The position numbers and the translations under genes are program-made. Of a stretch of 64,000 nucleotides of DNA, positions 13,636 to 51,706 are shown piece after piece. Position 1 is the first letter of the stretch. Each line of letters starts with the position of its first letter. The stretch comes from Amphiscolops sp. MND2022 (taxonomy: Eukaryota): contig OZ076409.1 in the NCBI GenBank assembly GCA_964187785.1, forward strand, positions 55,182,001 through 55,246,000. Direction: 5' to 3'. A model generated the notes under the pieces. It was not told the DNA's origin, searched no databases, and saw only the letters and a list, made by a program, of their open reading frames with translations.

Positions 13636-14410
13636 CTAAACAGTAATTCACCAGTGAAACCCCGAGAAACTTTCATACAATTAAACTATAAATTTCAAAT
13701 TTGCATCACAAACAATGCACTTAATTAGTTTATACCAAGATTCGATTGACCTTATTCTCTTTCCAACTGATTTGACATTGTAAAAGGGACAAAAGGCCAC
13801 AGAGAATGCGAGTTAATTGTTTCCGTCCTTATCAGTTTTAGCAACATGCACTCAAAAGTAGCTGCAAAATTACGGGAAAAGTTAAAAAACAGGCGATAAA
13901 TTTTAAGAGCTTTATAACAGTAGTCAAGTGCCTAGACGAAAAGCATATATTGTTAGATTGACTATAGGCACATAAAAGGACCGTGCATGTCGAAATTTCA
14001 GGGTACAATGATAGAACAAATGTTGCTTTTGCTCATGTTGAAGAGGGGGACGCCTTGGTGAAGTTTTTCAAGTATCAGTACGCTGTAAGCTGCTGCAGAG
14101 AATCCCTAAAGTATCAGTATCGATCCCATTGGAGTTTTGAAAGTTTTTGAAAAAATGGTTATTGCAGAATAATCTATAAATAGGTCACCGCATCACAAAA
14201 TAATTGACTGTCAGAGAAGGTTTGGCACCCGAATGTCAAGGTTAAGACAGCCTTATGTGTACTATGACACTTATGGAAGACTCAGGATGAAAGATATGTC
14301 GAAAGTACCTCTTTTTGGGATATCTCAAGCGGAATCTTTCAGCTTGAATCATTCAGAAAAATGATCAAAACCCGTTCTCTGTTTATAACTATTATGTCTT
14401 TACAGATGTA

Positions 14411-14465
14411 AGAAGAATACAGCCGCAAATAAACCAGGTACTTAGAACAGTTTTAACCCAAATTT
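14411..14465 (+). repeat. Polinton left terminal inverted repeat
   Basis: Exact reverse complement of 38448-38502. Weak similarity continues ~40 bp inward. Confidence 0.95.
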
Positions 14466-14596
14466 TAATTAAATTAAAATTTAACACAAGTACTTTTACA
14501 AATTCTTTTAAGAATTACTGAAAAGGAAATGAATATTCATTCCTATACGCACACGCGTGGCTGCTTTTAATTTAATTTGCGCACGCGCTGGCGGCC

Positions 14597-14954: not shown

Positions 14955-15262
14955 ATGTCTCAAAACAACACCACCACCAGCATCGCCGCCGCCGCCACCA
15001 CCACCACCAGCATCGCCGCCACCACCACCCAGAACTATCCAGAAACGGAAATGTGGGTTATTTATTTGTTCGTTTGCTTACTGGATTGAAAACAAATTCT
15101 TATTAAATTTTCACGAGCTTGCAAATCAAACTGTTTTATTCTAGAATCATCAACGCCAATTCGCAGTCGCCTCTGCTTACCACCCCGATCTTTGTTTTGC
15201 CGCCGCCCTACGAAGAAGAAGAAATTTATTCATCGGAGATCTCCCAGGACTCAATGTCCGAG
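14955..15262 (+). CDS. Putative spliced Polinton left-end gene (exons 14955-15052 and 15145-15262; downstream exon uncertain)
   Basis: ATG follows a polypyrimidine-AG. GTGGGT...ttctAG intron, in-frame join (MSQNNTTTSIAAAA...PIFVLPPPYEEEEIY...SE), then a GTATGT donor. Confidence 0.4.
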
Positions 15263-15450
15263 GTATGTTGAAGCAATGTTCATATTTTTGACAGAATTTT
15301 TTTTGTTTGCGCCCTTTAGCAATTGAGAACCTTAACGAAAGTCAAGTTGCACAATCATTGAAAAAAAAGGCAACAAAAATAGTTTCCTATTGTAACAACG
15401 AATGTACACTAAACCTTCAGTTCGAAAAAATTTTGTGTGGAAAACATTGC

Positions 15451-18400
15451 TTTTGTGTTGTTTGCGCATTGCCATTGTACAATACAAGTGCATACACGCA
15501 CGTAGGACTTGTGTAACGACCCCGTGGGTGACCGGACAAAATCCGCGTCGCGCGGATTTTTATTTTTTGCTTTTGTCAAGCTCCCCGTGCATTGTGGGAA
15601 TGTTGTTTTTGTGTTGTTTGCGCATTGCCAATGTACAATACAAGTGCATACACGCACGTAGGACTTGTGTAACGACCCCGTGGGTGGCCGGACAAAATCC
15701 GCGTCGCGCGGATTTTTATTTTTTGCTTTTGCCAAGCTCCCCGTGCAATGTGGGAATGTTGTTTTTGTGTTGTTTGCGCATTGCCAATGTACAATACAAG
15801 TGCATACACGCACGTAGGACTTGTGTAACGACCCCGTGGGTGGCCGGACAAAATCCGCGTCGCGCGGATTTTTATTTTTTGCTTTTGCCAAACTCCCCGT
15901 GCATTGTGGGAATGTTGTTTTTGTGTTGTTTGCGCATTGCCAATGTACAATACAAGTGCATACACGCACGTAGGACTTGTGTAACGACCCCGTGGGTGGC
16001 CGGACAAAATCCGCGTCGCGCGGATTTTTATTTTTTGCTTTTGCCAAACTCCCCGTGCATTGTGGGAATGTTGTTTTTGTGTTGTTTGCGCATTGCCAAT
16101 GTACAATACAAGTGCATACACGTACGTAGGACTTGTGTAAGGACCCCGTGGGTGGCCGGACAAAATCCGCGTCGCGCGGATTTTTATTTTTTGCTTTTGC
16201 CAAACTCCCCGTGCATTGTGGGAATGTTGTTTTTGTGTTGTTTGCGCATTGCCAATGTACAATACAAGTGCATACACGCACGTAGGACTTGTGTAACGAC
16301 CCCGTGGGTGGCCGGACAAAATCCGCGTCGCGCGGATTTTTATTTTTTGCTTTTGTCAAGCTCCCCGTGCAATGTGGGAATGTTGTTTTTGTGTTGTTTG
16401 CGCATTGCCAATGTACAATACAAGTGCATACACGCACGTAGGACTTGTGTAACGACCCCGTGGGTGGCCGGACAAAATCCGCGTCGCGCGGATTTTTATT
16501 TTTTTTGCTTTTGTCAAGCTCCCCGTGCATTGTGGGAATGTTGTTTTTGTGTTGTTTGCGCATTGCCAATGTACAATACAAGTGCATACACGCACGTAGG
16601 ACTTGTGTAACGACCCCGTGGGTGGCCGGACAAAATCCGCGTCGCGCGGATTTTTATTTTTTGCTTTTGTCAAGCTCCCCGTGCAATGTGGGAGTGTTGT
16701 TTTTGTGTTGTTTGCGCATTGCCAATGTACAATACAAGTGCATACACGCACGTAGGACTTGTGTAACGACCCCGTGGGTGGCCGGACAAAATCCGCGTCG
16801 CGCGGATTTTTATTTTTTGCTTTTGCCAAACTCCCCGTGCATTGTGGGAATGTTGTTTTTGTGTTGTTTGCGCATTGCCAATGTACAATACAAGTGCATA
16901 CACGCACGTAGGACTTGTGTAACGACCCCGTGGGTGGCCGGACAAAATCCGCGTCGCGCGGATTTTTATTTTTTGCTTTTGCCAAACTCCCCGTGCATTG
17001 TGGGAGTGTTGTTTTTGTGTTGTTTGCGCATTGCCAATGTACAATACAAGTGCATACACGCACGTAGGACTTGTGTAACGACCCCGTGGGTGGCCGGACA
17101 AAATCCGCGTCGCGCGGATTTTTATTTTTTGCTTTTGCCAAGCTCCCCGTGCATTGTGGGAATGTTGTTTTTGTGTTGTTTGCGCATTGCCAATGTACAA
17201 TACAAGTGCATACACGCACGTAGGACTTGTGTAACGACCCCGTGGGTGGCCGGACAAAATCCGCGTCGCGCGGATTTTTATTTTTTGCTTTTGCCAAGCT
17301 CCCCGTGCAATGTGGGAATGTTGTTTTTGTGTTGTTTGCGCATTGCCAATGTACAATACAAGTGCATACACGCACGTAGGACTTGTGTAACGACCCCGTG
17401 GGTGGCCGGACAAAATCCGCGTCGCGCGGATTTTTATTTTTTGCTTTTGCCAAACTCCCCGTGCATTGTGGGAATGTTGTTTTTGTGTTGTTTGCGCATT
17501 GCCAATGTACAATACAAGTGCATACACGCACGTAGGACTTGTGTAACGACCCCGTGGGTGGCCGGACAAAATCCGCGTCGCGCGGATTTTTATTTTTTGC
17601 TTTTGCCAAACTCCCCGTGCATTGTGGGAATGTTGTTTTTGTGTTGTTTGCGCATTGCCAATGTACAATACAAGTGCATACACGTACGTAGGACTTGTGT
17701 AAGGACCCCGTGGGTGGCCGGACAAAATCCGCGTCGCGCGGATTTTTATTTTTTGCTTTTGCCAAACTCCCCGTGCATTGTGGGAATGTTGTTTTTGTGT
17801 TGTTTGCGCATTGCCAATGTACAATACAAGTGCATACACGCACGTAGGACTTGTGTAACGACCACGTGGGTGGCCGGACAAAATCCGCGTCGCGCGGATT
17901 TTTATTTTTTGCTTTTGTCAAGCTCCCCGTGCAATGTGGGAATGTTGTTTTTGTGTTGTTTGCGCATTGCCAATGTACAATACAAGTGCATACACGCACG
18001 TAGGACTTGTGTAACGACCCCGTGGGTGGCCGGACAAAATCCGCGTCGCGCGGATTTTTATTTTTTTTTTGCTTTTGTCAAGCTCCCCGTGCATTGTGGG
18101 AATGTTGTTTTTGTGTTGTTTGCGCATTGCCAATGTACAATACAAGTGCATACACGCACGTAGGACTTGTGTAACGACCCCGTGGGTGGCCGGACAAAAT
18201 CCGCGTCGCGCGGATTTTTATTTTTTGCTTTTGTCAAGCTCCCCGTGCAATGTGGGAGTGTTGTTTTTGTGTTGTTTGCGCATTGCCAATGTACAATACA
18301 AGTGCATACACGCACGTAGGACTTGTGTAACGACCCCGTGGGTGGCCGGACAAAATCCGCGTCGCGCGGATTTTTATTTTTTGCTTTTGCCAAACTCCCC

Positions 18401-18874
18401 GTGCATTGTGGGAATGTTGTTTTTGTGTTGTTTGCGCATTGCCAATGTACAATACAAGTGCATACACGCACGTAGGACTTGTGTAACGACCCCGTGGGTG
18501 GCCGGACAAAATCCGCGTCGCGCGGATTTTTATTTTTTGCTTTTGCCAAACTCCCCGTGCATTGTGGGAGTGTTGTTTTTGTGTTGTTTGCGCATTGCCA
18601 ATGTACAATACAAGTGCATACACGCACGTAGGACTTGTGTAACGACCCCGTGGGTGGCCGGACAAAATCCGCGTCGCGCGGATTTTTATTTTTTGCTTTT
18701 GCCAAGCTCCCCGTGCATTGTGGGAATGTTGTTTTTGTGTTGTTTGCGCATTGCCAATGTACAATACAAGTGCATACACGCACGTAGGACTTGTGTAACG
18801 ACCCCGTGGGTGGCCGGACAAAATCCGCGTCGCGCGGATTTTTATTTTTTGCTTTTGCCAAGCTCCCCGTGCAA
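15451..18874. repeat. 156-bp tandem array, ~22 near-identical copies, each with a 10-bp-stem hairpin followed by a T-run
   Basis: The sequence recurs every 156 bp (lines 15481 and 16261 align at 5x156). Each unit contains AAAATCCGCG-tcg-CGCGGATTTT. Confidence 0.97.
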
Positions 18875-19198
18875 CCAAATGTTTAAACACAAAAAGGTCT
18901 TGTTGGTGTCGCGGTCATGGTGATTTGCTAGACATTGTCGCCTGCCTCTTGGGAAGGCAGGGTGATGCTGAAAACATCAACAATCACAGTGGTATCTATT
19001 CCAGAAGGTTGAGCCTCGACCCCCACAGAGGTTCAAACCTTCATCACTGAGAACTCTGCCGACAATGTCCGGCCCCGATCAGTATCCGCTGGACTAACAG
19101 GACCTTTATTTGACATGAAAATAGTTTCAGCAATAAAGATCCAGAGACTATGATTGTAGATTTTATAGAACGACGTTGTTTTTGTGTTTGTTCAGGAG

Positions 19199-20302
19199 AT
19201 GAAGTTCCGAAAGCAGCGGGACGCTTTTCAAGTTCTTTACGACTATTTTCGAAGAGGTCGCCAGTCAAGTTTCCACGTTGTGGTCCTCACGCCGTACGTT
19301 GAGCAATTCACGAATAATTTCCTTGGTTACAGCGCTACTGTAAAAGACTACAGCAAAGTTCTTTTTCCCTGTCAATCGATTGACGAGGACGTCAATCACG
19401 TTTACCGAAGTTTCCTCGGTTCAAACACGGACGTGAAGCCAATAAAATGGAAAAAATACGAGGTGATGGATTACCACTACAAGCGATCCTTCGACAGTCT
19501 AGTCCTCGGTATTGATTACGATGAAATTGAAAAAGATTTCCCAGCTGGCGATTCGGATTCGGACGATGATTGGAGTGACGATGGGATCTTCAATCATGAT
19601 GTAGCAGTTCCTGATATAACTTTCAACAACCTCAACGACAATCAAGCCGTCAGGGTCTTCAAGGTCCTTGCAAAGATCAATGATTTCCCATCTTTGCTGG
19701 TCGGAGAAACACGCTTCATTATTGGTCTGAGCAGCCTGCCGGTAGAATCCGTCAACGATGGGTTCCCTATTAAATTTTACTGGGATGTTGGAGAAATGCA
19801 GTTGGTTGAAAATGACACTCTTATTTTCTTGCCAGACGACTGCCTCGAGAAACTGGAGACCATTTGGCTCAATAGCAATAACGAAGAGAATATCTTCGAA
19901 TTTCTTCTCATTGTCGATTTTGAGCAGGGTGTGCTGCGATTTGGCCTCAACGACCAATTACTTTTGCAGACAATCTGTTTCCAAAGTGACCTCGCTTATG
20001 AGATTAGAATTTACTTCACCAAAACCACGGAATCATTGATGATATTAGAGGTTTTCAATCAGCCAAAAGCCTTGTCAAGTCTTGTGCCAGAGTGTCTGTT
20101 GAATATGTATCAAGAGCAGGCCGACGATTTGTTTAGCTGTCAATGGCCCAACGAATTTGTTGAACATCTGGTGAAAAAATTCTATTTTCAGAATTGTTCA
20201 AAAGGTTCAACGGTCACTGATGAACATCATCCCCTGATGGTTTCCCGGAAGTCTCTCTTGGAAGCCCATAGAATTACCAGAATGCAATCGCAAGCTCTGT
20301 AA
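19199..20302 (+). CDS. Divergent SPRY + SOCS-box-like protein (SPSB/Gustavus-like)
   Basis: FIIGLSS, FYWDVGEMQLVEND, FLLIVDFEQGVLRF and PKALSSL occur in the same order as SPSB AVVGVAT, WGWDLGRNRLYHD, FLVALDMDDGTLSF and PLPLMDLC. First ATG is 19199, with an acceptor-like site just upstream. AATAAA near 20435. Confidence 0.6.
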   Translation: MKFRKQRDAFQVLYDYFRRGRQSSFHVVVLTPYVEQFTNNFLGYSATVKDYSKVLFPCQSIDEDVNHVYRSFLGSNTDVKPIKWKKYEVMDYHYKRSFDSLVLGIDYDEIEKDFPAGDSDSDDDWSDDGIFNHDVAVPDITFNNLNDNQAVRVFKVLAKINDFPSLLVGETRFIIGLSSLPVESVNDGFPIKFYWDVGEMQLVENDTLIFLPDDCLEKLETIWLNSNNEENIFEFLLIVDFEQGVLRFGLNDQLLLQTICFQSDLAYEIRIYFTKTTESLMILEVFNQPKALSSLVPECLLNMYQEQADDLFSCQWPNEFVEHLVKKFYFQNCSKGSTVTDEHHPLMVSRKSLLEAHRITRMQSQAL

Positions 20303-20727
20303 TTTGTAATTAAACGTTGCGCTGGATAGCAGTCCTTTCTTGTTGTAACATGTTTTTTGAAGCGTTGAATTGTCTTAAAACTGCTTAAAATTCAATGTAT
20401 TTTTTCAAGGAGTGAGAAAGAATCAGTCTTCATCAATAAAATGTTTGTAATCGGTACTGTTTTTTTTTGGATTTTGCCACCGATACAGTCTAGACGTTTT
20501 TTGGCAGAAGACATAAAACAGTTGGAGTCTTGAAATTGATTCTCCCATCCTGTCCGAAACGCAGCAAACTATATATGTATTCGTTGTGCCTCAAAACGTT
20601 TTCTCCCTTCAAATCACAATTCAGTTTTTTTGTTAAAGTCGCTGATTACATGTTTTACTACATTTTTGAGAGTTCAGATTCACAGTACTCTTTCCGTTTC
20701 AGAGTCTCATTGTTTTGACGAAAAAAG

Positions 20728-21452
20728 ATGAATTGGTTGAACAGTGTTGTACGTAAGCGCTCCCAGAAGAAGACTCTGGGTATTGTTGGAAACGATGCAA
20801 AATCTGTTGTGTCCTCCTGGCGAATCTCACCGGAGCAAGACGAGTCCAGCCACGACAAATGGTGGGACATTGCCAAGTCGCATAATCGCTGGGTTAGAAT
20901 CGGAGTGAAGTGCTACCCAAACAACCTCTCTTCGGAGATGTCAACCGCGACTTACATCGGGCTGCGACTATTCAAACCCGATTTTCAAAGCGGCCAGTGG
21001 CAGCGGCAGGGTCACTTTTCGTTCACTGTTGAAGAGCTGACTGCGTTTGTTGCTTTGCTTGGTCTAGGTGACAAGGCGCAATTGCATTGGAATCATCAGG
21101 GGTGAAATCTGCGACGACGCAGGAGTTCAACAGAGCGATGGAGGAAGCTCTGACGGGTGGGTTCCGAGAACCTACGTCAATCTCAACTTTTGGAAAGAAG
21201 CCTACTGGCAAGAAAGGTTTTTCCAAGGTCAATGGCGCGAAAGTCGGGTCAACCACAACCACATCGAAGAAGCGGGTCCAAAATGTCACGGGCGACTGTT
21301 TGACCAATGGCGACAATGAGAACATAACAATCGAGGCCGACGTTGAAAACCAAAAATTGTTTGAGAAACGAGATTTTGTTATGTTCAACGGTGAGACTGG
21401 TACGAACATAGCCACCACTGAGGATGATGATGATGAAGTTTTCATGAACTAA
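20728..21452 (+). CDS. PC4-like ssDNA-binding protein with low-complexity tail (ORFs 20728-21105 and 21087-21452, probably one frameshifted gene)
   Basis: WDIAKSHNRWVRIGV...YIGLRLF...GHFSFTVEELTAF fits the PC4 pattern (RyVsV...IDIR...GISL..EqW). The two ORFs overlap by 19 nt. Confidence 0.5.
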
Positions 21453-21813
21453 ACGTCTCTTAAAGCTCGATGTTTTGTTGTATATGTGTTTGTTTGTTCT
21501 TGCGCGTGCATTAAGTTTGACATTTTTTAATTTTGGCCAACTTCTCATTACGTTTCACTTATTGGCTTCTAAATAGGCATTTTTTCATACAGTACTTCGG
21601 TTCTCATTTATACTCATCAGGCTAACCCCTCTGTGACGTGTTGCGTATACAAGTTTGTTTCCGGACCATTAATATAAATACCTTCTTCATATAATTTATG
21701 TTGTTGATTTTGTTTTTTTTACTATTTGGAATCTTCATCAATCTTACAGTAGTTTTAATTGCTTCTGTGACACGTTTAATTCTTGTTGCATTGCGTTTGT
21801 TGCAGATTATGCC

Positions 21814-24800
21814 ATGGGGTTCAATCCTGAGCAGTACTATAGTGTAAATCGAATGCCACAAAGACGTAGTCTGTTGCGAGCGGCCAGCAGAGACTATGAA
21901 GTGTACTTCACGGACATTGAAAGTGTGCTGGATCGAATTAAAGAGATTTTCAACCACCTCATCAACAAATTGATATCTGAGATACAGCAAGATCTTCCTG
22001 GTCATTCACACAGAATTCGATTGGTATTGAATGCGCCTACCCTCAACTATCCTATTCATATCCCATTCTCGTCCGTAGCGGATTTCAACGCCGAACTGAT
22101 TCTCGATGAAATTGACAGGGTCGTTAATTCCAACGAGTCATTTGATATTAGCAACAATATCAAAGTCAACGTTTTGAGTGTTTCTTTACCAACAATGGGC
22201 GGGAACCGGCTTGGAGGCATACAGAGCAGGACTGTTCCCGATATCAAGCTCTTCACGAAACAAAAGTCAATAATTGTAATCAAAAGTGACCAGAACGATT
22301 GTCTTTTGCGGGCCATAGCAATTGGCATCAAAGTTAAGGAGCGATCTCCCCGGCCGCCTAGTAAAAGAAAAACGACAAAAAACTTGCACCTGGATCGGGC
22401 TTCCGTGCAAACGCGTGAAATGCAGCATTTGATAACCCTTCTGAAATCTGATCCAAGCATCCCCCAAGACGAATTGCAGACAATTTTGGCTGGTGGTGCT
22501 TCCTCGAAAAGACTTCCCACCTCTGCCTTTGACGACTCCTCTACTGGGTTGCTTCACCATCAGACAGCTCAAACCTCTCCTGCTTCTGGTAAACCTCTTG
22601 CTCTACAAGATTTAGAATTTTTGTCTCAGTCGCAAGTGTTGAAAGACTTTTGTTTATCTGTTTACGATAGCAACTTTATGGGCACTTTCCTTAAATGTTA
22701 TAATCAGGAAGCACAGCAGAATATCGACCTTTTGTATGATGCTCAAAACAGACATGTAGATTTAGTTACCTCAATGAAAGGACTATTCGATGCTCGCCAC
22801 TACTGTTACAGTTGTCACAAGGCCTTTTCCACAGTGAAGCATTTATGCTCTGCCAGTGGTTGTTTGCTGTGTCGGCAGCCTGGCTGTCTCAATAGGACCG
22901 GTTTCATCAACCTTTCGCCGCTCAATTGGACTACCTCGTCCAATGACTTGTCAAAGACCCCTCGCCAGTCACCGGTTTTCCAGTGTGATAGATGCAGGCT
23001 AAAGGTACGAAGCCAAAAGTGTCTGGATTGCCATGTTACCTCTGGGGTGTGTCATTTGTACACTTTGTGCCCTACATGCGACAATACTGTACCTAAGCGA
23101 GCTTTCTCCAATCATATTTGCTCAAAAAAACGCTGTTCTACTTGCTCCGTCCATTACTCATTGTCAGACCGTAAAAACACCTCTTCGCCTTCATCGGAAC
23201 ATCAATGTTTCGTACAAAAACCGAAGAGATGTATAGAGCGAGAAATACCGAATGGTGATACCAATAACGAATTTCCTGATTGTGAAATATTGGGCGGAGA
23301 GAATTATCGTGAAGAAGTTGAGAAAGAAGATCCGATGACGCAAATCAAACGCAGGAAAGTGAGCAACGCTCCAGTCGATGACGATGGTACTGTTACGTCT
23401 CGTGACCAGCCAGCAAACAACTTTGCACGAGCTCCCTCGGATGACAAAATTTGGGTTTTTGACATAGAAACTGACCAGAGTTGTGGCAATGAAGGGCTAC
23501 ATAAACCAATTCTACTGGCAGCAGAGTCTTTGACAGGTGATGAAGTTATTTACTGTGGCTACGATTGTATAAACGATTTTTGTGAGGATGTTTTTGCTAG
23601 TGTTGAAAGGGTTCGTCAAACTGAATGGTTTATTGCCCATTTTGGCAGTGGGTTCGATTTCCTACCAATCCTGGAATGGCTCTACAAACAACACAAATAT
23701 GTCCCCAAAATTTTGCTCAGAGGTAACAAGGTTGTGTCAATGCGTGTGGGGAATAAACGATTCATTGACTCTTATCTTTTCATCCCGATACCTTTATCAA
23801 ATTTTCCCACAACGTTCAATCTCAAGGAATTGAAAAAAGGATACTTTCATTTTTTGACATCTAAAGAGGCCCTCTATCCCGCCGCTACTTCAAAGCTGCA
23901 TAGTTTACAAACATGCGAGAAAGGGGAAAACTGCAATCTGCGCAAAATTGTTTCCAACGACTGCAATCACTGTGTAGCTACACAAAGCAATGTTAGCTGC
24001 TTCAATGCAGGAAATGACCAAGAAGAATGCCAAGAGTTTGCTCTCAAAGAAGGCCAATTTCAACCCGCGTGCCTTTTTGCTTTGAATTCGATGAAAGGAC
24101 AGCAAACGGTGAGCACGTTTTTGGAATGGCACTCAGCACAGACCCAGCTTTATAAAGTTAATAAGCTCGTTTACGACTTTCAACAAGAACTCGTGTCGTA
24201 CTGTCAGTCAGATGTTAAACTACTCAAAGAGGGTTTTTTGAAGTTTAGAACATTAATCAAGAAAGTGTGCAGCGGAATAGATCCGTTCGAAGTCGCTTGC
24301 ACAGCAGCATCAGCATGTAATTACATTTATAGACAACTATTCATGCCGAAGGACTCCATCGCAATCCTCCCTCAGAACGGTTACACGGGCAATGAGTTAA
24401 CGTCTTTCCCAGCTGCCGTTTGGCTGTCGTGGGTGGAACAAGTTGCAAATGATCGGAAGTCAAACGAGTTCAGTATTCGTCTGTATAAATCAGGCGGAGG
24501 ATTGAAGCGAGGCAGAGGTAAGGAGCAGACACTTGGATCATTCAAAGTAGACGGACTTCTTCTGTACAAACGAACATCTCAATCAAAGAGTACCGCATGT
24601 GGGAGTGTTGTCCAGAAACCACAACTGTCGATAGTTTTGGAGTTTTTTGGATGTTACTTCCACGGGTGTCCTTCTTGTTATACAGACCGAGATGAGGTTA
24701 ATAAGAAACGAAATGTTACAACAATGCATGATTTGTACACCACAACAGTTATGGACAGACTGGACTGGATATCAGCTCAAATCTCGAACGGCACAGTCTT

Positions 24801-26841
24801 CACAACAACAGATAACTTACGTTTTGTTGTGCATAGTATATTTTTCATTTGGGAATGTGAGTTTAAAAAACTGTTGGAACTGTCCATATCCGAAGACGAA
24901 GAAGGAATTGATACAACGTGGACGCATTTGCCGAGGTCAGTAGCAGCAAGACTCAGCAGCTCCCCCTCGAGCAATTTCGATGACATCCAGCAGGTCGAAC
25001 AAAGTCGTGTAATACATCAGACCTTACTGTATCGGCTGAGTAACATCAAACTACTGCAACAGATGTCAAATGACAGCATTCGTTACAGTCCGTTACAGCC
25101 TCGTGACGCTTTTTTTGGAGGAAGAACAGAAAATTTTGTCATGAAGTGGTCTCGACAACTACAGTCTCAGACCTTCAAGTATGTCGATGTTTGTTCGCTG
25201 TACCCATATGTGAATTCCAGGTCAGTGTACCCTTCAGGGCATCCTGATTTGATTCTGATTGCTACAGAACAGCAACAACAATCGATTGCGCGTAAAGAAA
25301 AGGCTCGGAATAACAGCAACTCTGCCAATGAAAAACCGCCTCAAACCAGTTGGTTTGACGAGGATGTGAATGTAGCTCAAAGTAAAGCTGTGGAGTTTAA
25401 ACTTTTGGATCGGGTTGACAGGATTCTTACAATGCCCAGTAACGAACGAGACTCGGGAGGAGATCAATGTGAAGCGGAACAATCACATTCTCTGCCTCCA
25501 CCACAGAGGTTCCGAAAGTTCTCGCAACGAACGCTTTTGGAATTCCCCTTAACTTTTGTTGAATTAAAATTGAAAAACGAGGATTATTTTGGTCTGATAA
25601 AATGCCAAGTACTGCCACCGTCTGATATACATCTACCCATTTTACCATTCAAATTTCAATCGAAACTCTTTTTTCCGCTATGTCGAAGTTGCGTTGAAGA
25701 AAGATCCAGCATGCCTGACAATAAGAGTGTGGACTTGACATCAAAGAAGTGTGTTCATCGCCAAGTAGAAGAGAGGAGTTTCTGGGGCACATTTGCTACC
25801 CCAGAAGTTAAGCTTGCTTTGGAAAATGGATACCGAGTGATAGATGTAGCAGAGATTTGGAGTTGGTCGAGAGCAAAAAGGTCTGTGACATTGTTCAAAG
25901 AATATATCGATAACTTTTTGAAAATAAAAATGGAGGCATCTGGTTGGCCAAAAACATGCCGCTGTGAAGAGAAGATGAATTCTGATTCATCGACAGAAAT
26001 GATATGCGAGCATAAGAGGCGTTACCTTCAGGAGATGAAGAAGAAAGAAGGCATTTCACTTGACCCTGCGAGGATAGAGAAAAACGAAGGTCTACGCTTT
26101 ATTGCTAAAATACTTCTGAACAGCTTCTGGGGTTATCTCGGAATGCGGGATAATATGCCAAAAACGAGGTACGTTAACAACTATCGAGAGGTCGTGGACT
26201 ATTTCACATCGCGAACAAAAAGAGTTACTGATGCGACTCTAGTGGGCGATGATTTGATGCTGCTACAATATCAACTCATTGATGACGCGGCAGACGCTCC
26301 GCGGAAGACAAATGTGATTCTTGCTGCCTTCACAACTGCACATGCTCGCATAATACTTTTCAACAATATGCAGCTGGTGAAAAATCCTAAAAATGTACTC
26401 TATTGTGATACAGACAGTATCATGTATGTCCACGATCAATCTCTGACCGATTCCCCGGATATCTCAATTGGGAGTGGACTGGGCGAAATGACCGACGAAC
26501 TGCCTCCTGATGTCTTGATTGACAAGTTTTGGAGTGCAGGGCCAAAGTTTTATTGCTTGTCTGGTCACAACGTTAAAACAGGACTGGAGTATAATATTTT
26601 CAAAGTCAAGGGTGTAACGCTGAATAGGGCTACAGAGAAAACATTCAACCCCGATACCTTCAGAAAACTCGTGCTTGGTGAGACTCATGAATTGCGAAGT
26701 ATTTACAGTAGTCTGAGTCGTTGTGTTCGAACAGGCCAACTGAAAAACAAGTTTTGTGAAAAACGCGCCCGAGTCACAAGTAACAAACGTGTTTTCAACA
26801 CAAATTCCGGCGAATCTACACCGTTTGGTTACGTCGGTTGA
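21814..26841 (+). CDS. polB: Protein-primed family B DNA polymerase (pPolB), 1675 aa
   Basis: Exo I FDIETD, Exo II AHFGSGFDF, Exo III YCQSDV; motif A YVDVCSLYP, motif B KILLNSFWG, motif C YCDTDS; GPKFY and KVKG. Intact ORF. Confidence 0.97.
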   Translation: MGFNPEQYYSVNRMPQRRSLLRAASRDYEVYFTDIESVLDRIKEIFNHLINKLISEIQQDLPGHSHRIRLVLNAPTLNYPIHIPFSSVADFNAELILDEIDRVVNSNESFDISNNIKVNVLSVSLPTMGGNRLGGIQSRTVPDIKLFTKQKSIIVIKSDQNDCLLRAIAIGIKVKERSPRPPSKRKTTKNLHLDRASVQTREMQHLITLLKSDPSIPQDELQTILAGGASSKRLPTSAFDDSSTGLLHHQTAQTSPASGKPLALQDLEFLSQSQVLKDFCLSVYDSNFMGTFLKCYNQEAQQNIDLLYDAQNRHVDLVTSMKGLFDARHYCYSCHKAFSTVKHLCSASGCLLCRQPGCLNRTGFINLSPLNWTTSSNDLSKTPRQSPVFQCDRCRLKVRSQKCLDCHVTSGVCHLYTLCPTCDNTVPKRAFSNHICSKKRCSTCSVHYSLSDRKNTSSPSSEHQCFVQKPKRCIEREIPNGDTNNEFPDCEILGGENYREEVEKEDPMTQIKRRKVSNAPVDDDGTVTSRDQPANNFARAPSDDKIWVFDIETDQSCGNEGLHKPILLAAESLTGDEVIYCGYDCINDFCEDVFASVERVRQTEWFIAHFGSGFDFLPILEWLYKQHKYVPKILLRGNKVVSMRVGNKRFIDSYLFIPIPLSNFPTTFNLKELKKGYFHFLTSKEALYPAATSKLHSLQTCEKGENCNLRKIVSNDCNHCVATQSNVSCFNAGNDQEECQEFALKEGQFQPACLFALNSMKGQQTVSTFLEWHSAQTQLYKVNKLVYDFQQELVSYCQSDVKLLKEGFLKFRTLIKKVCSGIDPFEVACTAASACNYIYRQLFMPKDSIAILPQNGYTGNELTSFPAAVWLSWVEQVANDRKSNEFSIRLYKSGGGLKRGRGKEQTLGSFKVDGLLLYKRTSQSKSTACGSVVQKPQLSIVLEFFGCYFHGCPSCYTDRDEVNKKRNVTTMHDLYTTTVMDRLDWISAQISNGTVFTTTDNLRFVVHSIFFIWECEFKKLLELSISEDEEGIDTTWTHLPRSVAARLSSSPSSNFDDIQQVEQSRVIHQTLLYRLSNIKLLQQMSNDSIRYSPLQPRDAFFGGRTENFVMKWSRQLQSQTFKYVDVCSLYPYVNSRSVYPSGHPDLILIATEQQQQSIARKEKARNNSNSANEKPPQTSWFDEDVNVAQSKAVEFKLLDRVDRILTMPSNERDSGGDQCEAEQSHSLPPPQRFRKFSQRTLLEFPLTFVELKLKNEDYFGLIKCQVLPPSDIHLPILPFKFQSKLFFPLCRSCVEERSSMPDNKSVDLTSKKCVHRQVEERSFWGTFATPEVKLALENGYRVIDVAEIWSWSRAKRSVTLFKEYIDNFLKIKMEASGWPKTCRCEEKMNSDSSTEMICEHKRRYLQEMKKKEGISLDPARIEKNEGLRFIAKILLNSFWGYLGMRDNMPKTRYVNNYREVVDYFTSRTKRVTDATLVGDDLMLLQYQLIDDAADAPRKTNVILAAFTTAHARIILFNNMQLVKNPKNVLYCDTDSIMYVHDQSLTDSPDISIGSGLGEMTDELPPDVLIDKFWSAGPKFYCLSGHNVKTGLEYNIFKVKGVTLNRATEKTFNPDTFRKLVLGETHELRSIYSSLSRCVRTGQLKNKFCEKRARVTSNKRVFNTNSGESTPFGYVG

Positions 26842-27044
26842 ACAATAACTTCTCATTTATTTTAGACATACATGAATTTTATCAAGTTTGTAAAACATTC
26901 GTCCTTGTTGTGTGGCTATTACTTTGCTTTTGAAAATAAAATTTGTGCTTAAATCTCGATTGATCATCTGGATTAAACATCCTCCTTGGTTAATAATCAA
27001 AACTGGCCCAATTAACGAACTGCTGTGTTTCAGACTTTTTGTCA

Positions 27045-30275: not shown

Positions 30276-31133
30276 TTGGCGGACCTCCACAGTCAGAGTC
30301 AGAGGATCAAAGCTAGCGATCGACAAAATGATGAGTCTTTTTGTGAGTCCATTGGGCAGTCACCGCGTTGCTTACCGTTTTCTCAAGCTGTATTTTTGAC
30401 ACAACTTGCTGTCATTTTTATTTTGGACGCATTCTGTCTGTTGAAACTTATCACATCCCAAACTGAAGCAAGCACAAAACAGAACCGAGAAATAACTGAC
30501 AATTCGTGTCACGATACATCGATTTATATGAGCATTCTGAGCTCAATGTTAGCCTATCTTATTCCGGCCCCAAGAGTACCTGTGAAAGTCCAAAGTGAGA
30601 GAAGACAACGCACTGTAAAGATATCATCCAATGAACACTCAAAAAGAACGGGATTAACAGCGCAATGTTTTTCATCACCTCAACAACGTCACGATCAGCA
30701 ATCAAATGAAGCAAATTTGGGAAAAAACGAGGTTCCTGCTGTTTCAGCCACTTCGGTAGCGTTGCCGATTGAACCCGACACGCAGATTGAAGGCGTGGAT
30801 TACCCTGACTATGATTGTTTGCCAGAATCAAATGCAACACTAAGTCTTTACAACCAGTCAAAAGACGCAACGAATCTTTCCTGCAGTATAAATTTTGACG
30901 TGGAAGAAGACTCTGACATTTGGCTCTGCTTCAATTGGCAAGTAAGCCGAACTTTTTTCATTTTTTTCTCACAGATTTTTTTCGTCATGGGTCTTGTTTT
31001 GTTCTCCGTTAGTAGAATGTTATTGGTATCCTCACTGAATTGTGAAGAACGAACTGCTCATTTCATGATTCTTTCCACTTGCATTGCCTACTTGTTACCC
31101 AATGCTGATAATCTCGACAGATCAAATAAATAA
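30276..31133 (+). CDS. Membrane protein with two tandem copies of a two-helix module
   Basis: VFLTQLAVIFILDAFCLLKL...C..TSIYMSILSSMLAYLIP and IFFSQIFFVMGLVLFSVSRML...C..RTAHFMILSTCIAYLLP. Lies directly upstream of the ATPase. Start codon uncertain (ORF begins at TTG). Confidence 0.65.
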   Translation: MADLHSQSQRIKASDRQNDESFCESIGQSPRCLPFSQAVFLTQLAVIFILDAFCLLKLITSQTEASTKQNREITDNSCHDTSIYMSILSSMLAYLIPAPRVPVKVQSERRQRTVKISSNEHSKRTGLTAQCFSSPQQRHDQQSNEANLGKNEVPAVSATSVALPIEPDTQIEGVDYPDYDCLPESNATLSLYNQSKDATNLSCSINFDVEEDSDIWLCFNWQVSRTFFIFFSQIFFVMGLVLFSVSRMLLVSSLNCEERTAHFMILSTCIAYLLPNADNLDRSNK

Positions 31134-31137
31134 CGAA

Positions 31138-32196
31138 ATGAATAAATTAATTTCCACGGAAAATCGCATTTTTATGTGTGTCTGTGGCGCATCAGGCTCT
31201 GGTAAAACACACCTTTTACTAAACATGCTGACCAGTCGTTCCGACGGTATATTCTGGCCGAGGTTCGAAAAAGTTATCCTCTTCTACCGCCATTGGCAAA
31301 CAATATATGAACAATTTTATCAAGATGTGCCAAGCAAAGTTTTCTTTGAAAACGTGGTTGAAACGGAGAACGAAACCGGCCTTGCAAAACTTGGTAATCA
31401 GAAACACCAAACCCCAGGTCATAAGACAAGTCATTCAAGAATAGATACCCTGATTTCAAAACTCTTGGATCATCAATCCCAGGAAAGCAAATACCATACA
31501 ACGTTTGGAAATGAAAAAGCATTGGCAATTTTTGATGACTCGTGCGAAGAAATTCTTCAGAGCGCAACCTTCGCCAATCTTGCAACCGCTGGTCGACATA
31601 AAGGGGTCAATGTGATTTTTATCAAGCATAACTTGTACCAGCAGGGTAAATATTGTGTCACGGTCGACAAAAATACAACACATTTGATAATTCTCAAGTC
31701 ACCAAGAATAGGTCGGCAGCTCAGGCTACTGGGGTCCGAACTGGAATTTGCTGATGCTGCGTTCCTTCAAGATGCTTACCAGTTGGCCACATCCGTGCCA
31801 CATGGACACCTGCTGATTGATCTCAGCACCAACTGTCATGATGCCCTCAGGTTTAGCACTCGTATCTGCAGAGCTAGCGACGACATAACTACGCTGATTA
31901 AACAAAACAAAAACAAACAACGATCAAAAGTGCATTCAACCACCAACATTACGCGAAAGAAAGAGAAACCAGACAGTCGGATCCTCATCAATCTCAAAAA
32001 GGTTCTACCGACTGGGTTTTACGTTCCTAAAAGAGTTTTCAACAATTACGCTCGTGTCTATAAAGATCACACTGTTGGCACACACAACATTACTGTAAAC
32101 AGGACCAAAAACTATCCAATCATTGCCTTTCCAAAGTTGTCGCCCTCTTCTATTCTTTACCGGGAATATGCATTATACAGTCCGAATCATCGTTGA
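31138..32196 (+). CDS. A32/FtsK-like DNA packaging ATPase
   Basis: Walker A GASGSGKT, Walker B AIFDD, GRH arginine motif, IFIKHNLY. Confidence 0.92.
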   Translation: MNKLISTENRIFMCVCGASGSGKTHLLLNMLTSRSDGIFWPRFEKVILFYRHWQTIYEQFYQDVPSKVFFENVVETENETGLAKLGNQKHQTPGHKTSHSRIDTLISKLLDHQSQESKYHTTFGNEKALAIFDDSCEEILQSATFANLATAGRHKGVNVIFIKHNLYQQGKYCVTVDKNTTHLIILKSPRIGRQLRLLGSELEFADAAFLQDAYQLATSVPHGHLLIDLSTNCHDALRFSTRICRASDDITTLIKQNKNKQRSKVHSTTNITRKKEKPDSRILINLKKVLPTGFYVPKRVFNNYARVYKDHTVGTHNITVNRTKNYPIIAFPKLSPSSILYREYALYSPNHR

Positions 32197-32843: not shown

Positions 32844-33875
32844 ATGACTTTCGAACGTAGCAAGCATCGAAATGTCAAGGAGAGGAAGCTGACTGAGTCA
32901 GAATATCGTAAACTCCATGGAATCTATACCTCCCCAAGTGACCCGGCCGCTTTTGGCAGCGTTAAAAATTTGGTGAAAGCAAGTGGCTTGCCACGTTCTA
33001 AGGTCTTGGCTTACCTACAATCGTCGTCGACGTACACAAAGTTCAGGGCGACAAAACGGAAATTCGCTCGCTTACCTGTTGTATCGCTTGGCATTAACCA
33101 TATTTGGTCACTGGATGTGGCATATATGGAGAAATTGGCCAATTTTAATAATGGTAACAAATACTTACTTCTTGCAGTGGACACGCTCTCTAGAAAAATT
33201 TGGGTGCAACCGATGTTGAACAAAACAGCTGCAGCTGCTAAAGCAGCCTTCGAGAAAATGTTGAATTTCGAGACGATGCAGTTCCCCATTAAGCTATGGG
33301 TTGATCAAGGCAAAGAGTTCAGGGGTGAATTTTTGAAATTTTGCAACGATAACGACATTGAAGTTTACAGTACTTTCAGTGAAACAAAAAGCTGTATGGC
33401 CGAGCGTTACATCAGGACACTGAAAACTATTCTCTACAAGTTTTTCGAAGAACATCGAACTTTCAAGTACGTTCATCTACTTCCAAAATTTGCTTCTCTT
33501 GTAAATAGGCGTTACAATCGCGCCATTGGTATGCCTGCTGCCAATGTTACTGCTAAAGACGTTCCTAAACTAATTGCTCTCCAATTTGAAAAGTCAAAGA
33601 CTCGTCCGCAGAAACCTCAATTTGAAGTCGGTGATCGAGTACGTATTGCGCTGAAAAACATGCCATTCCGGAAAGGCTACAAACAACAGTACACCAATGA
33701 AGTTTTTAAAGTTCATCAAGTTTGTAAGCCTAAGAAAACTGGGCTGGCAACGACTTACAGATTAGAAGATATCAAAGGCGAGCCAATTTTGGGAAGATTT
33801 TACACCGCCGAGCTCACTCATTTCAACTATCTACAGAATAGGAGCCGGCCGCGTCATCAACGTATCCTAAATTGA
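32844..33875 (+). CDS. int: Retroviral-like (RVE) integrase of Polinton type
   Basis: DDE triad SLDVA / WVDQGKEF / MAERYIRT, plus a C-terminal FEVGDRVRI..FRKGY module. No chromodomain seen. Confidence 0.95.
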   Translation: MTFERSKHRNVKERKLTESEYRKLHGIYTSPSDPAAFGSVKNLVKASGLPRSKVLAYLQSSSTYTKFRATKRKFARLPVVSLGINHIWSLDVAYMEKLANFNNGNKYLLLAVDTLSRKIWVQPMLNKTAAAAKAAFEKMLNFETMQFPIKLWVDQGKEFRGEFLKFCNDNDIEVYSTFSETKSCMAERYIRTLKTILYKFFEEHRTFKYVHLLPKFASLVNRRYNRAIGMPAANVTAKDVPKLIALQFEKSKTRPQKPQFEVGDRVRIALKNMPFRKGYKQQYTNEVFKVHQVCKPKKTGLATTYRLEDIKGEPILGRFYTAELTHFNYLQNRSRPRHQRILN

Positions 33876-35614: not shown

Positions 35615-36949
35615 ATGCCTGATACATTTATTTACTCCGAGCCACCAGTACCTGGCATGCATTCAGGACTGTCATTGTTTGGGACCTCTGAGATCCTTGT
35701 CGATTTTCAACGTGGTTATCATGAGGAAATTTTCACTGCAAACAGTGCGGATGGGCCGGTGTTGGAGTTTGATTTCCAGGGGGCCAAAACCGACATTGGA
35801 GGTACAGTAATAGACTTGGTTAATCTTTTCCTGAAATTGGAGGTCAAAATGAAATTTGTTGGCAGAGGTGATGATGACGATGTAACTGATAAGAAACCTG
35901 TTTTTGTTAACAATTTAATGCATAGTTTATTCCAAAATGTAGAGGTTTCCCTTAACGGGACACCAGTGTCGTCAGCAAACAACTTATATCCATACAAAGC
36001 GTTGGTTGAGGCAGAACTTTCGCATAACGCTTCGTGTAAAGAAGGCTGGCTACACTGTCAAGGGTACAGTTTCGAAACAAATCCTGGAGACATTAGTGGT
36101 GATGAGGCATTCAGCAACAGGAAGAAACTAGGTGAAAATTTGACGTCAAAGTGGAGTCTTTACGGTAGAATTGCCGATAACTTCTTGGCAGACAATCATA
36201 AGTTTCTACTTCCTGGTGTCGAGGTCAGAATTCGACTTTATCGCGCACCCGACCAATTTGTGTTGGTCCATGAAGGAGGTGCGAAAGACTCAGCAGGTGA
36301 TTTCTCCTTACAAATTGTAAGCGCCTCTTTGTTGGTTCACAAGCTGGAATTGAAAAATGAGACTTTTCTAACAATCGAGCGAATGTTGTCCAAAAAAGCC
36401 GCTCACTACGATTTTCGTGAGATGGTCCCCAAATCGTTCCTAATCTCCAGCGGCGTCACTATGTATTACAGAGACGACCTCTTCAACCGTGCCCCGATAA
36501 GTCGATTGGTGTTGTTTTTGGTGCCGGAAACTAGCTTCAGTGGTAATTTTGAAACAAATCCTTTCCACTTTCAGCAAATGGACCTCGAGACTGTACGAAT
36601 CAATCGAGAGGGAGCACTTGTAGGGGCCACGCCTTTGCATCTTAATGATAATCTCGTTCGTTCTTATTACAACACTCTGAAGGCAGTTGGTTTTGAACAT
36701 GGTGGTAACGGTATCACTCTTGACAATTTCAATAATCATTTCTGTCTGGTTTTTAAATTAACTGCTGATTACCACATCGAGAACACAATTCGTCCTGAAC
36801 TCACTGGCGCGCGGCTGGGTCTAGAGCTGAAGTTCTCCAAAGCAACAACAAAACCAATTCGTCTCATTTTGATGGGCGAGAGGAGGTCCATCGTTCTCAT
36901 TGATCGCAACAGAGAAGTTATCAAAAACTCCAGTATTTACAATGGTTGA
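35615..36949 (+). CDS. Major capsid protein (double jelly-roll)
   Basis: 444 aa with NNLMHSLF..VEVSLNG..VS...LYPYKA, LLPGVEVRIRL and NPFHFQ motifs typical of Maverick capsids. Confidence 0.88.
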   Translation: MPDTFIYSEPPVPGMHSGLSLFGTSEILVDFQRGYHEEIFTANSADGPVLEFDFQGAKTDIGGTVIDLVNLFLKLEVKMKFVGRGDDDDVTDKKPVFVNNLMHSLFQNVEVSLNGTPVSSANNLYPYKALVEAELSHNASCKEGWLHCQGYSFETNPGDISGDEAFSNRKKLGENLTSKWSLYGRIADNFLADNHKFLLPGVEVRIRLYRAPDQFVLVHEGGAKDSAGDFSLQIVSASLLVHKLELKNETFLTIERMLSKKAAHYDFREMVPKSFLISSGVTMYYRDDLFNRAPISRLVLFLVPETSFSGNFETNPFHFQQMDLETVRINREGALVGATPLHLNDNLVRSYYNTLKAVGFEHGGNGITLDNFNNHFCLVFKLTADYHIENTIRPELTGARLGLELKFSKATTKPIRLILMGERRSIVLIDRNREVIKNSSIYNG

Positions 36950-37422: not shown

Positions 37423-37578
37423 CGCATGATAATATTTCAGCTCAGAGTTTGTAAAATTTGACTGTGCAACTTTACTGACATAATTTTTATCAATGTTTTA
37501 TGTGAAGTATAGTAATTTACGTGTTCAGTATGTTCGTTGTTTTTGTTTCAGTTGCCGAGTAGCCTTAGAGCAGATTTT

Positions 37579-38313: not shown

Positions 38314-38447
38314 CCAACTCCCTGCTCTGCATGCGAACAAATTCCTTTATTTTTCTACTATCCCCTACTTTATCATCAAATATTTATTCCCAGCAGCAAA
38401 CAGAGGTTTGAAGTTTTAAAAGTGTTTGTTAAAATTTTATTCAATAT

Positions 38448-38502
38448 AAATTTGGGTTAAAACTGTTCTAAGTACCTGGTTTATTTGCGGCTGTATTCTT
38501 CT
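38448..38502 (-). repeat. Polinton right terminal inverted repeat
   Basis: Reverse complement of 14411-14465, followed by TSD GATGTA. Confidence 0.95.
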
Positions 38503-47629: not shown

Positions 47630-48677
47630 ATGACGGCACCACGACACTCTCGACAAGAGAAGCTGCTGTTTAGTGGACGAGAGGATGACTTCCCCACTTT
47701 TCTGGAGCAGTTCGAAGCAAGAGTCTATGCCCTGGGACTTTCTGACTGCCTTCTGGACAATCAGAACAACACCTCAAAAGGATGTGGAGACGAATGATGA
47801 ACGTGTCAAGCGAGACGGGGAAGAAGCAGATCGAGCCAAACTACAGTACATGGTGTGGTGCGAGCTGGTTCAGTGCCTTGACAAGGCAAGCATCAACTTC
47901 ATCAGAGGGCACAAGCCGAATGGGACTGCAGCCTGGACAGCTTTGACGAAGCTCCACAAATCAACTGAACGGCCTCGTGTTCAATCACTGATGACACAGC
48001 TCACTGGTCTCAAGATGACATCAGGGGAGAAGGTGACTGACTACCTCACCAAAGCAGAAGGGCTCAAACTGGATCTGGCTGAAGCGGGGGAAGTGGTCTC
48101 AGATGCTCTCTTCATAGCGATGATTCTCAAGGGTCTTCCAAGTGACTTCGACAGTGTGGTGGCAGTCCTCAACTTCGGCACAGCAAAGGGGTACTACGAG
48201 ATGAAGCAGGACTTGGTCAACTTCGCAGCAACCAGGGGTCTCTGTGTTTCCAGCGAGACATCGATGACAGCAATTCACTCAGCCGGGAGGAAGCCTTCAA
48301 AGTGCTTCAAGTGTGGAAAGATGGGGCACCGAGCTAAAGACTGCCACAGTCGGGAGACGAGGACTTGCTTCAACTGTGGTCAGATGGGGCATCTGGCTTC
48401 AACTTGCAGGAAGGGACAGCAAAAGAGCTCAAGTGGAGGATGTGGATCGGGTCAATCCAGCAACCATTCATCAGCGGACTTCTTCAGCTTCGGGGCTTTC
48501 AGGGCTGGTTGCTACGACAAGGGGAGCATTGAGCTTCTCATTGACTCTGGGTGCAACGGCTTCATGATCAAGAACAAAGAGCTCTTCTCTGATCTGGACG
48601 AGGGTTTTCTGGCAGACGTATGCAACGCTAACAGCAGTCGTTCAGAGGAGGACATGGGACAGTGCGATGCTTTGTGA
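47630..48677 (+). CDS. gag: Copia gag-protease region (frameshift near 47760)
   Basis: MTAPR...LLFSGREDDF start, two CCHC knuckles (CFKCGKMGHRAKDC, CFNCGQMGHLASTC), protease LIDSGC. Confidence 0.85.
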
Positions 48678-51600: not shown

Positions 51601-51706
51601 AAAGACGCAACAACACCTTGCTCGGCTGTCGGCAATGCGGGGGTATCAAAGTTTGCCATCCGCCTCGCAAGGCGGGAACGATCAAATGATGAGCCACGAC
51701 CACTAA
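48662..51706 (+). CDS. pol: Copia integrase-RT-RNase H
   Basis: WHRVMGH..CNIC, DDE (HTD, SDG, IER), KARFVARG, MDIKTAYL, LYGLKQ, WVDD, DSDYA, ADIFTK. The ORF ends inside the 3' LTR. Confidence 0.95.
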   Translation: MRCFVKDNTGRSCLLKLKDAFWVPSYARNLVSVKRLTDKGAMIQFNDDPTIKMPNGTVVPMMTNDELFSVMAQPVETGSLALMSHSIKHWHRVMGHNNWHDVAKLQQEVVGMNISGSEKKTNCNICCTEKAKRASIPKTWGTRAKTKLAIVHTDGLGPIQQESHEGFRYAVGFIDSYSRFGAVYSMKSKDDVTAKLQRFIIDVGRPGTLVSDGALEFKSKQFSDLCTSNGIKQEFSAPYTPEENGQIERAWGTVTGMTRCMMATAGVPKQFWPFALSTAIYLKNRSIHSEHGKTPFEMFHGSKPDLSHLHVFGCQSFVLNEVRKKLDSKAREAILLGYSGNSKAYVVASTDGSETRAPKVWVSRNVNINDDAFPYQRGSAVTQGESEDDDASQSDVDDLKSGSDEQCETTSTKTHAIQGESEDNINPDEGTPNVTDSTTAVQQTTTRCSGRTRRAPQHFGDYVTGRELENLALHCDALISSGLPSNTADALADPNWKAAMDREFKSLEENGVWELVKPPSGQGIISGKWHFAHKLDDEGNVVKYKARFVARGFTQTPGIDFHDTYSPTAKLSTLRTVPACGVKLGMHFNQMDIKTAYLNAPIQEDIYMEQPEGYQKGKQMVCKLKRSLYGLKQSGSNWFECLSSHLFEFNFKASLHDPCLLTLTRNGHKCWIVIWVDDIFYGSTDSQFATWFNDKMSEQFIIGESGPLTWFLGISFKWGDGSLTMKHQGYVSNLLRKHGMGECKAASTPLADKLDLTKDQMPEDGSDEQQQMLRHDYRGLVGSIAYLSLFTRPDLAFPAHLLSRFLSNPGFAHWQAAKHVLRYLRGTADVGITFMKCDDTGLNGYTDSDYASCKDDRRSITGFCFNVGSGAISWAARRQTCVATSTTEAELHALSEAVKEAVHLRGILDTLGESIATTLFTDSQSCLALATRDDNSAKTKHFATRMAYVRETVKNQSIDLKFIASGDNCADIFTKGLGKTKTQQHLARLSAMRGYQSLPSASQGGNDQMMSHDH

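Follow-up and report, generated by a model that had tools for sequence, protein, structure and literature searches.

Viral BC-box adaptors and accessory genes of Polintons have both been described before (PMC3355856, PMC4812663, PMC8502044, bioRxiv 10.1101/2022.07.12.499685). HIV Vif, adenovirus E4orf6, CELO Gam1 and EBV BZLF1 are reported to contain a viral BC-box, often together with an incomplete cullin box, and to redirect a host ligase (PMC3355856, PMC4812663). The pattern given for the BC-box is (S,T,P)Lxxx(C,S,A)xxx-hydrophobic, while the Cul5 box requires LPxP and the Cul2 box reads hydrophobic-P-xx-hydrophobic-xxx-hydrophobic (PMC3355856). Among the Polinton relatives, adintoviruses carry host-manipulating genes upstream of the polymerase, the same place that the SPRY-like gene of the present study occupies; these "Oncoid", Bcl2 and IAP genes are described as non-core, fast-evolving and host-interacting and occupy the element's left part, ahead of the polymerase or integrase (PMC8502044). 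The wasp and krma cargo of nematode Polintons is likewise non-core, fast-evolving, left-part and host-interacting, and contains introns, too (bioRxiv 10.1101/2022.07.12.499685). The accounts of adintovirus and nematode cargo on which we draw name no SPRY or BC-box gene (PMC8502044, bioRxiv 10.1101/2022.07.12.499685), the supplementary adintovirus gene maps of PMC8502044 being a place that could hold a SPRY annotation, and a search of the literature without most subscription journals found no report that connects Polintons to SPRY or BC-box genes. The locus analyzed here resembles these systems and differs from them in two respects. Vif, E4orf6, Gam1 and BZLF1 bear short motifs according to the available descriptions, whereas the Polinton protein seems to be a whole captured adaptor with a SPRY domain, its binding being predicted. 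Moreover, unlike the reported adintovirus and nematode cargo, the SPRY-like gene is fixed in one clade and not swapped, and it would span a subfamily-specific array.

The window, i.e. the whole analyzed stretch of 64,000 nucleotides, contains a Polinton of 24,092 bp (14411-38502), whose ends were defined by the terminal inverted repeats (TIRs), the target-site duplication and the ends of sister copies (Table 1). Both Polinton hallmarks, TIRs and a 6-bp target-site duplication, are present; the duplication reads GATGTA on both sides, and the matching to 5-6 sister copies stops at these ends. The core gene set of pPolB, integrase, ATPase and capsid was found in an order common to sister elements. 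The open reading frame (ORF) at 19199-20302 (+) encodes 367 aa and is intact and stop-free, in agreement with the earlier note, which had described an uninterrupted ORF within the TIRs and had placed the gene outside the Polinton core set, an assignment that is supported here. The alternative of a host gene beside a Polinton was ruled out by the position of the gene inside the TIRs. The syntenic neighbour gene is broken in two in the window copy; most sister copies have it as a single frame with roughly 242 codons. Outside the element, gag and pol ORFs of a Copia-type LTR retrotransposon occur at 47685-51706 of the window.

Table 1. Features of the Polinton and its SPRY-like gene, in window coordinates.
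Feature	Position	Strand	Remarks
Left TIR of Polinton	14411..14505	+	Arms 88% alike over 95 bp; 6-bp duplication ahead, 14405-14410
Candidate exon 1	14955..15052	+	ATG, GT donor, phase 2
Candidate exon 2	15145..15262	+	Ends phase 0, GTATGT donor; PPxY in A/A' only
Tandem array, 156-bp units	15401..18900	.	About 22 copies; within putative intron
Main exon	19196..20302	+	Acceptor ends 19195 (phase 0), ATG 19199, 367-aa ORF
SPRY beta-sandwich, predicted	19583..20068	+	Residues ~129-290; AF2 model, Foldseek, VIA, hhalign
BC-box-like motif	20069..20098	+	Residues 291-300; Leu292, Leu300 kept; Val at Cys position
Cullin-box position	20144..20170	+	Residues 316-324; Cul2-box pattern fits, Cul5 LPxP absent
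Neighbour gene, syntenic	20728..21452	+	No Pfam match to either part; split into two ORFs here
Protein-primed DNA polymerase B (pPolB)	21814..26841	+	Above Pfam cut-off
A32-type packaging ATPase	31102..32196	+	Above Pfam cut-off
Retroviral-type integrase	32844..33875	+	Above Pfam cut-off
Major capsid protein	35615..36949	+	Pfam Capsid_N E 0.011, under cut-off
Right TIR of Polinton	38410..38502	-	6-bp duplication directly after

The genome (1.07 Gb) holds 80 matches to the 367-aa protein, 11 of which, the window copy included, comprise at least 366 residues with 86-100% identity and no stop. The A/A' lineage of the window copy has many 98-99% identical copies, while subfamilies B and C share about 33-36% and subfamily D 17-19% identity with the window protein; the unnamed database proteins P0135 ("E", 40%) and P0139 are also related. 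An intact ORF in related elements, which the earlier note had wanted to see, was found, since the gene is retained in four main subfamilies and the 11 near-full-length copies are stop-free. At the fetched B, C and D loci the SPRY-like gene precedes the polymerase and shares its orientation. In a synteny count based on 58 match starts chosen from genome searches, with small fragments beside the listed places left out, the SPRY-like gene stood at most 3.5 kb upstream of the neighbour gene at 44 of the latter's 46 places (one of the two exceptions has a short fragment), and the neighbour gene followed downstream at 45 of 55 places with the SPRY-like gene. A domesticated stand-alone copy is unsupported: five of the ten places without the neighbour gene adjoin other Polinton genes, one is near a weak integrase remnant, and Polinton genes were not detected at the other four, which are short or full of stops.

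The dN/dS values between lineages were 0.17-0.37 in all eight A/A' comparisons, whereas near-identical copies gave 0.27-1.66 on few changes and single pairs gave 0.44 (B) and 1.01 (D). The SPRY-like gene is under purifying selection between lineages. Collectively, its fixed position between a satellite array and the polymerase block, its retention in four subfamilies and the between-lineage dN/dS identify it as a stable, selected and long-resident accessory gene that is specific to one Polinton clade. It diverges far faster than the capsid (73-86%) or the integrase (61-67%). Relatives were found in none of 99 metagenome stretches and none of 87 viral contig stretches, nor in the phage collection or among longer proteins. 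The gene was also absent from 527 frames from 20 sampled stretches of other Polintons with capsids about 36-40% identical, the stretches covering not every element whole. A second Polinton group in the genome (e.g. L195, L199, L203, L206), apparently far more numerous with 1582 first-look candidates and a capsid about 40% identical, has a different gene order, and the SPRY-like gene was not detected in it. Some copies are locally amplified in tandem, at C8:53.465-53.485 Mb (L050), L138 and L016/L017; those on C8 are degraded (about ten pieces), and those on C12 are an identical pair. The database protein P0147, which fuses N-terminal parts of the neighbour gene and the SPRY-like gene, probably stems from a rearranged copy.

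The SPRY beta-sandwich proposed in the earlier note is indeed predicted. An AF2 model made from 19 viral rows, with host rows excluded, shows a beta-sandwich at residues 132-286 with block pLDDT values of 63-88 (mean 56), residues 52-131 and 287-318, the BC-box region included, being below 50; the single-sequence model was unusable (pLDDT 32.8). In the Foldseek search with the AF2 model, SPRY domains filled the top 16 ranks, where rank three was SPSB1 (3f2o) and rank six Gustavus (2ihs), and the best matches include TRIM67, SPSB1, TRIM9, DDX1 and Gustavus. With VIA, RyR2 SPRY1 reached Z 13.3 (rmsd 3.8, 142 aligned) and MID1 Z 12.2 (rmsd 2.8, 123 aligned), and Gustavus and a galectin had Z 10.8 each, the galectins being 1.4-2.5 Z below the best SPRY. 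The SPSB3-type structure 8ol1_L gave Z 9.3 compared to 10.8 for Gustavus in a comparison of structures. Because galectin and Gustavus are equal in Z, the fold can be called SPRY-like, but it does not single out SPSB as the donor.

The resemblance to SPSB proteins becomes visible with profiles. The hhalign comparison with 42 SPSB rows aligned 154 collinear columns, which begin at the first strand of the SPRY domain and end at the BC-box (E 6.9e-4; the probability against the SPSB profile is 24-27%), and its score of 33.9 was reached by none of 196 block shuffles (best 25.7) and not by the reversed profile (11.5). All four SPSB motifs listed in the earlier note occur in the translation in the order given there, but the profile alignment pairs IIGL with the SPSB "VGY.SL" loop and not with the "AVVG" strand. 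Using the SPSB HMM against single sequences, the window protein was not significant, as its score was equalled or exceeded by 12 of 500 shuffles, and one unrelated ORF of the element scored higher; for eight single viral proteins 2-23 of 500 shuffles reached the score, and 2 of 10 rows were unreported. Neither SPRY (PF00622) nor SOCS_box was matched in Pfam by any copy or profile, and phmmer and hmmsearch against the PDB gave no sequence match for any copy or profile; matches to RAMP (E 0.0026, under the cut-off) and LRR (E 0.39) were judged to be chance. ESM features placed the window protein with SPRY and SOCS_box clusters at 0.92 and subfamily D (19% identical) with unannotated, SPRY and Neuralized clusters at 0.89-0.90, the recognition values of 2123 and 2082 being below the 2300 mark. 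The viral HMM reported 120 of 120 SPSB proteins with a median of 8.2 bits (0.7-12.6); among 13 other host SPRY frames, several of which are exon fragments, DDX1 reached 7.2 bits and the remaining 12 at most 2.4 bits or were unreported, and the host's own SPSB on C6 gave 1.2-1.7 bits, i.e. less than DDX1. Hence, the resemblance to SPSB is beyond chance only at the profile and structure level.

SPSB1/2/4 and Drosophila Gustavus likewise show the order SPRY then BC-box, collinear with the viral protein at the profile level, and a fold that appears alike in the model. In contrast to them, the viral protein is mobile-element-borne, shares only about 12-14% identity and adds an N-terminal region with an acidic tract, found directly ahead of the first aligned strand in the window protein, as well as a C-terminal extension of about 35 aa. 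It might be argued that the gene encodes a SPRY- or lectin-like sandwich of non-SPSB descent, serving as binding or virion protein, with a chance amphipathic helix imitating the BC-box: galectins and other SPRY families match or exceed SPSB structurally, identities are as low as 9-16%, and SPRY and ConA-like proteins occur in other viruses. In BFVD, SPRY proteins were found in pandoraviruses, in one fish herpesvirus match and in phages with 8-11% identity. This descent is improbable, because the SPSB match continues in register across the BC-box and cullin-box positions, the motif directly follows the SPRY domain in all subfamilies, and the gene is outside the capsid block. An SPSB origin of the SPRY-like gene is accordingly regarded as quite probable, the likely source of the capture being a host SPSB/Gustavus gene. 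The present host genome contains two SPSB genes (L052 and L053), with no SOCS exon found within 10 kb of L052; the host SPSB gene has its closest named relative in Symsagittifera roscoffensis (cluster at 69% identity). A further host family, locally expanded on C6 and C7, consists of single-exon SPRY-like genes (L063, L065, L066, L067, L069), the C-terminal part of which is of unassigned type.

Pro289, Leu292 and Leu324 are invariant in all 19 family rows, while the column of Cys296 contains Cys in 11 rows, Thr in three (D), and Val in four and Gly in one (A, A'). Subfamilies B, C and E keep the BC-box Cys, and the full BC-box consensus is satisfied in the C rows, P0135, P0139 and P0141. The window copy deviates at Ala291 and Val296; the Cys is not displaced, as the earlier note had read it, since Val296 substitutes for it in register. 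In the tree, the Cys loss falls on the A/A' branch, which is sister to the Cys-bearing P0135 (support 100/99). The best score of an SPSB BC-box matrix fell directly behind the SPRY domain in 13 of the 14 non-A rows and in none of the five A-type rows. Judged from these motifs, Elongin binding is likely weakened or altered in the subfamily of the window copy. The Cul5 box LPxP is absent from all 19 rows, so that of the SPRY-SOCS box gene claimed in the earlier note the SPRY fold and the order SPRY then BC-box are supported, but not the full SOCS box. The Cul2 pattern, expected 8-23 residues past the BC-box, fits the A rows and P0135, whereas C and D deviate from it. As a separate observation, the main exon of subfamily D (L138:3999-4060, L146) opens with a second BC-box-like stretch, which has matrix scores of 9.9-10.7, level with the C-terminal one, and corresponds in the alignment to the LYDYF motif that A-C conserve.

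The missing Cul5 box in 19 of 19 rows, together with Val or Gly at the Cys position in five of five A-type rows that are nevertheless under purifying selection and represented by many 98-99% identical copies, would also fit a decoy, in which the SPRY domain holds a host protein or Elongin BC is tied up without an active ligase. Since 11 of 19 rows keep the BC-box Cys, this reading is limited to the subfamily of the window copy, where it is most plausible. The invariance of Pro289, Leu292 and Leu324 speaks against it, as does adenovirus E4orf6, which is reported to recruit Cul5 without a Cul5 box (PMC3355856, PMC4812663), so that the absence of LPxP is still compatible with a ligase. We regard the decoy as unlikely. 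The protein family likely works, as far as its motifs indicate, as a viral substrate adaptor of an Elongin BC-cullin ubiquitin ligase; it would act in a similar way to SPSB and Vif/E4orf6 proteins, but it departs from SPSB1/2/4 in its Cul5 box and NNN pocket and, as far as the window copy is concerned, also in its BC-box.

As a possible target, the earlier note had brought up Vasa, the helicase that Drosophila Gustavus binds. SPSB1 is reported to contact the NNN motif of Vasa/Par-4 via Arg77, Thr111, Tyr129, Val216, Trp217 and Gly218, and SPSB3, which is without four of these pocket residues, to show no NNN-motif binding (PMC2923778). The window protein has Asn132, Pro164, Leu177 and Thr at the positions of Arg77, Thr111, Tyr129 and Gly218; its Ile-Tyr-Phe-Thr 271-274 faces the Val216-Gly218 region, with Tyr/Phe at the Trp217 position. 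Arg77 and Tyr129 are unmatched in every aligned row, in a low-identity profile alignment where shifts of 1-2 residues are possible and D perhaps has an Arg near the first position, while an aromatic-Gly pair at the Trp217-Gly218 position is kept in most B and C rows. As a whole, the NNN pocket thus appears not to be kept in the viral family, and Vasa is unsupported as substrate. The idea that Vasa is degraded or held in a Gustavus-like manner, blunting the piRNA defence, could appeal to the SPSB-like ancestry, to the aromatic-Gly pair of most B and C rows and to the SPRY domain of RanBP9, which binds a DDX4 peptide (PDB 5jiu title) and indicates that other binding modes exist. With the Arg77, Thr111 and Tyr129 positions altered family-wide, Gly218 replaced by Thr in the window copy, and SPSB3 reported to fail on the motif when these residues are missing (PMC2923778), it is very improbable.

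The adaptor function could proceed in the following way. The BC-box helix would dock on host Elongin C and a cullin would be recruited, Cul2 and Cul5 both being considered because the Cul5 motif is lost and the window copy fits the Cul2 pattern. Remodelled SPRY loops may bind a new host substrate rather than an NNN-motif protein, and this substrate would be sent for degradation, by which expression or copying of the element might be helped. We lean slightly towards this complete scheme, in which an adaptor of SPSB descent binds Elongin C, brings in a cullin and has a new host target degraded; every step past the fold is one that we infer. How animal Polintons counter their hosts is little known. 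A clade-wide ligase adaptor would provide a handle on this question, as the binding partner of its SPRY domain would be a candidate host factor restricting Polintons. Moreover, the natural Cys/Thr/Val/Gly variants of the BC-box permit a comparison of adaptor and decoy states without engineering. Acoels, apparently the group of the host, possess pluripotent adult stem cells.

The gene may begin further upstream than its annotated ORF, i.e. the real protein start may be upstream of 19199. In each of the four subfamilies, a phase-0 splice acceptor marks the start of the homology. The phases of the two candidate exons are kept despite length changes in eight of eight A/A' copies, exon 1 having a length of 2 mod 3 in all eight, one with a stop; both B copies modelled have a two-exon plan alike, with the same exon 1 phase and a similar exon end. 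A 69-nt phase-0 exon was detected in four of eight stretches scanned of subfamily D, while the search for an upstream exon in subfamily C found none. In B and C the conserved QVLYDYF(K/R)RG, 5-7 of whose 9-10 codons differ synonymously, precedes the first in-frame Met, which is codon 24 in B and at least codon 87 in two C copies; this conservation ahead of the first Met calls for an upstream coding exon in both subfamilies. For the window copy, sequence features suggest a gene that is probably spliced over the satellite array, with the ORF as its final exon. Several points are counter to the splice model: with an acceptor that lies closer, 13 codons result in A and 70-90 in A'; subfamily A possesses an ATG of its own, three bases past the acceptor; and acceptor-like pyrimidine-AG stretches occur 8-30 bases ahead of several other start codons of the element. 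Such sites were noted at window positions 20700-20727, 21800-21813, 27030-27044 and 37545-37578.

The candidate exon 2 contains a PPxY motif in eight of eight A/A' copies, and the motif was found neither in a pattern check of one B copy nor at the left end of D; the lineage with PPxY is the lineage without the BC-box Cys. PPxY binds the WW domains of NEDD4 ligases. It is conceivable that A/A' switched ligases, canonical Elongin binding being lost and the N-terminal PPxY recruiting a NEDD4-family HECT ligase, which would suit both this distribution and the mapping of the Cys loss to the A/A' branch with P0135 as sister (100/99). However, the coincidence represents a single evolutionary event and depends on a predicted splice, the PPxY is within a proline-rich stretch, and the BC-box leucines are still present in A, making such a switch highly improbable for us. 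Likewise a long shot is the more far-reaching scenario of an ancient capture of a whole SPSB adaptor that was retargeted to a host antiviral or transposon-silencing protein and spliced over the array, with the newest lineage shifting from Elongin-cullin to a PPxY-recruited NEDD4-type ligase. Our preferred reading remains the Elongin BC-cullin adaptor.

Finally, the arrays directly before the SPRY exon differ by subfamily (L173, L180, L181, L141, L031). The units measure 156 bp in A (14-59 units), 143 bp in A', 149 bp in C and 134 bp in D, and subfamily B has just a 509-bp repeat of 2.8 copies in one of three stretches. The position of the array is conserved while its sequence turns over.
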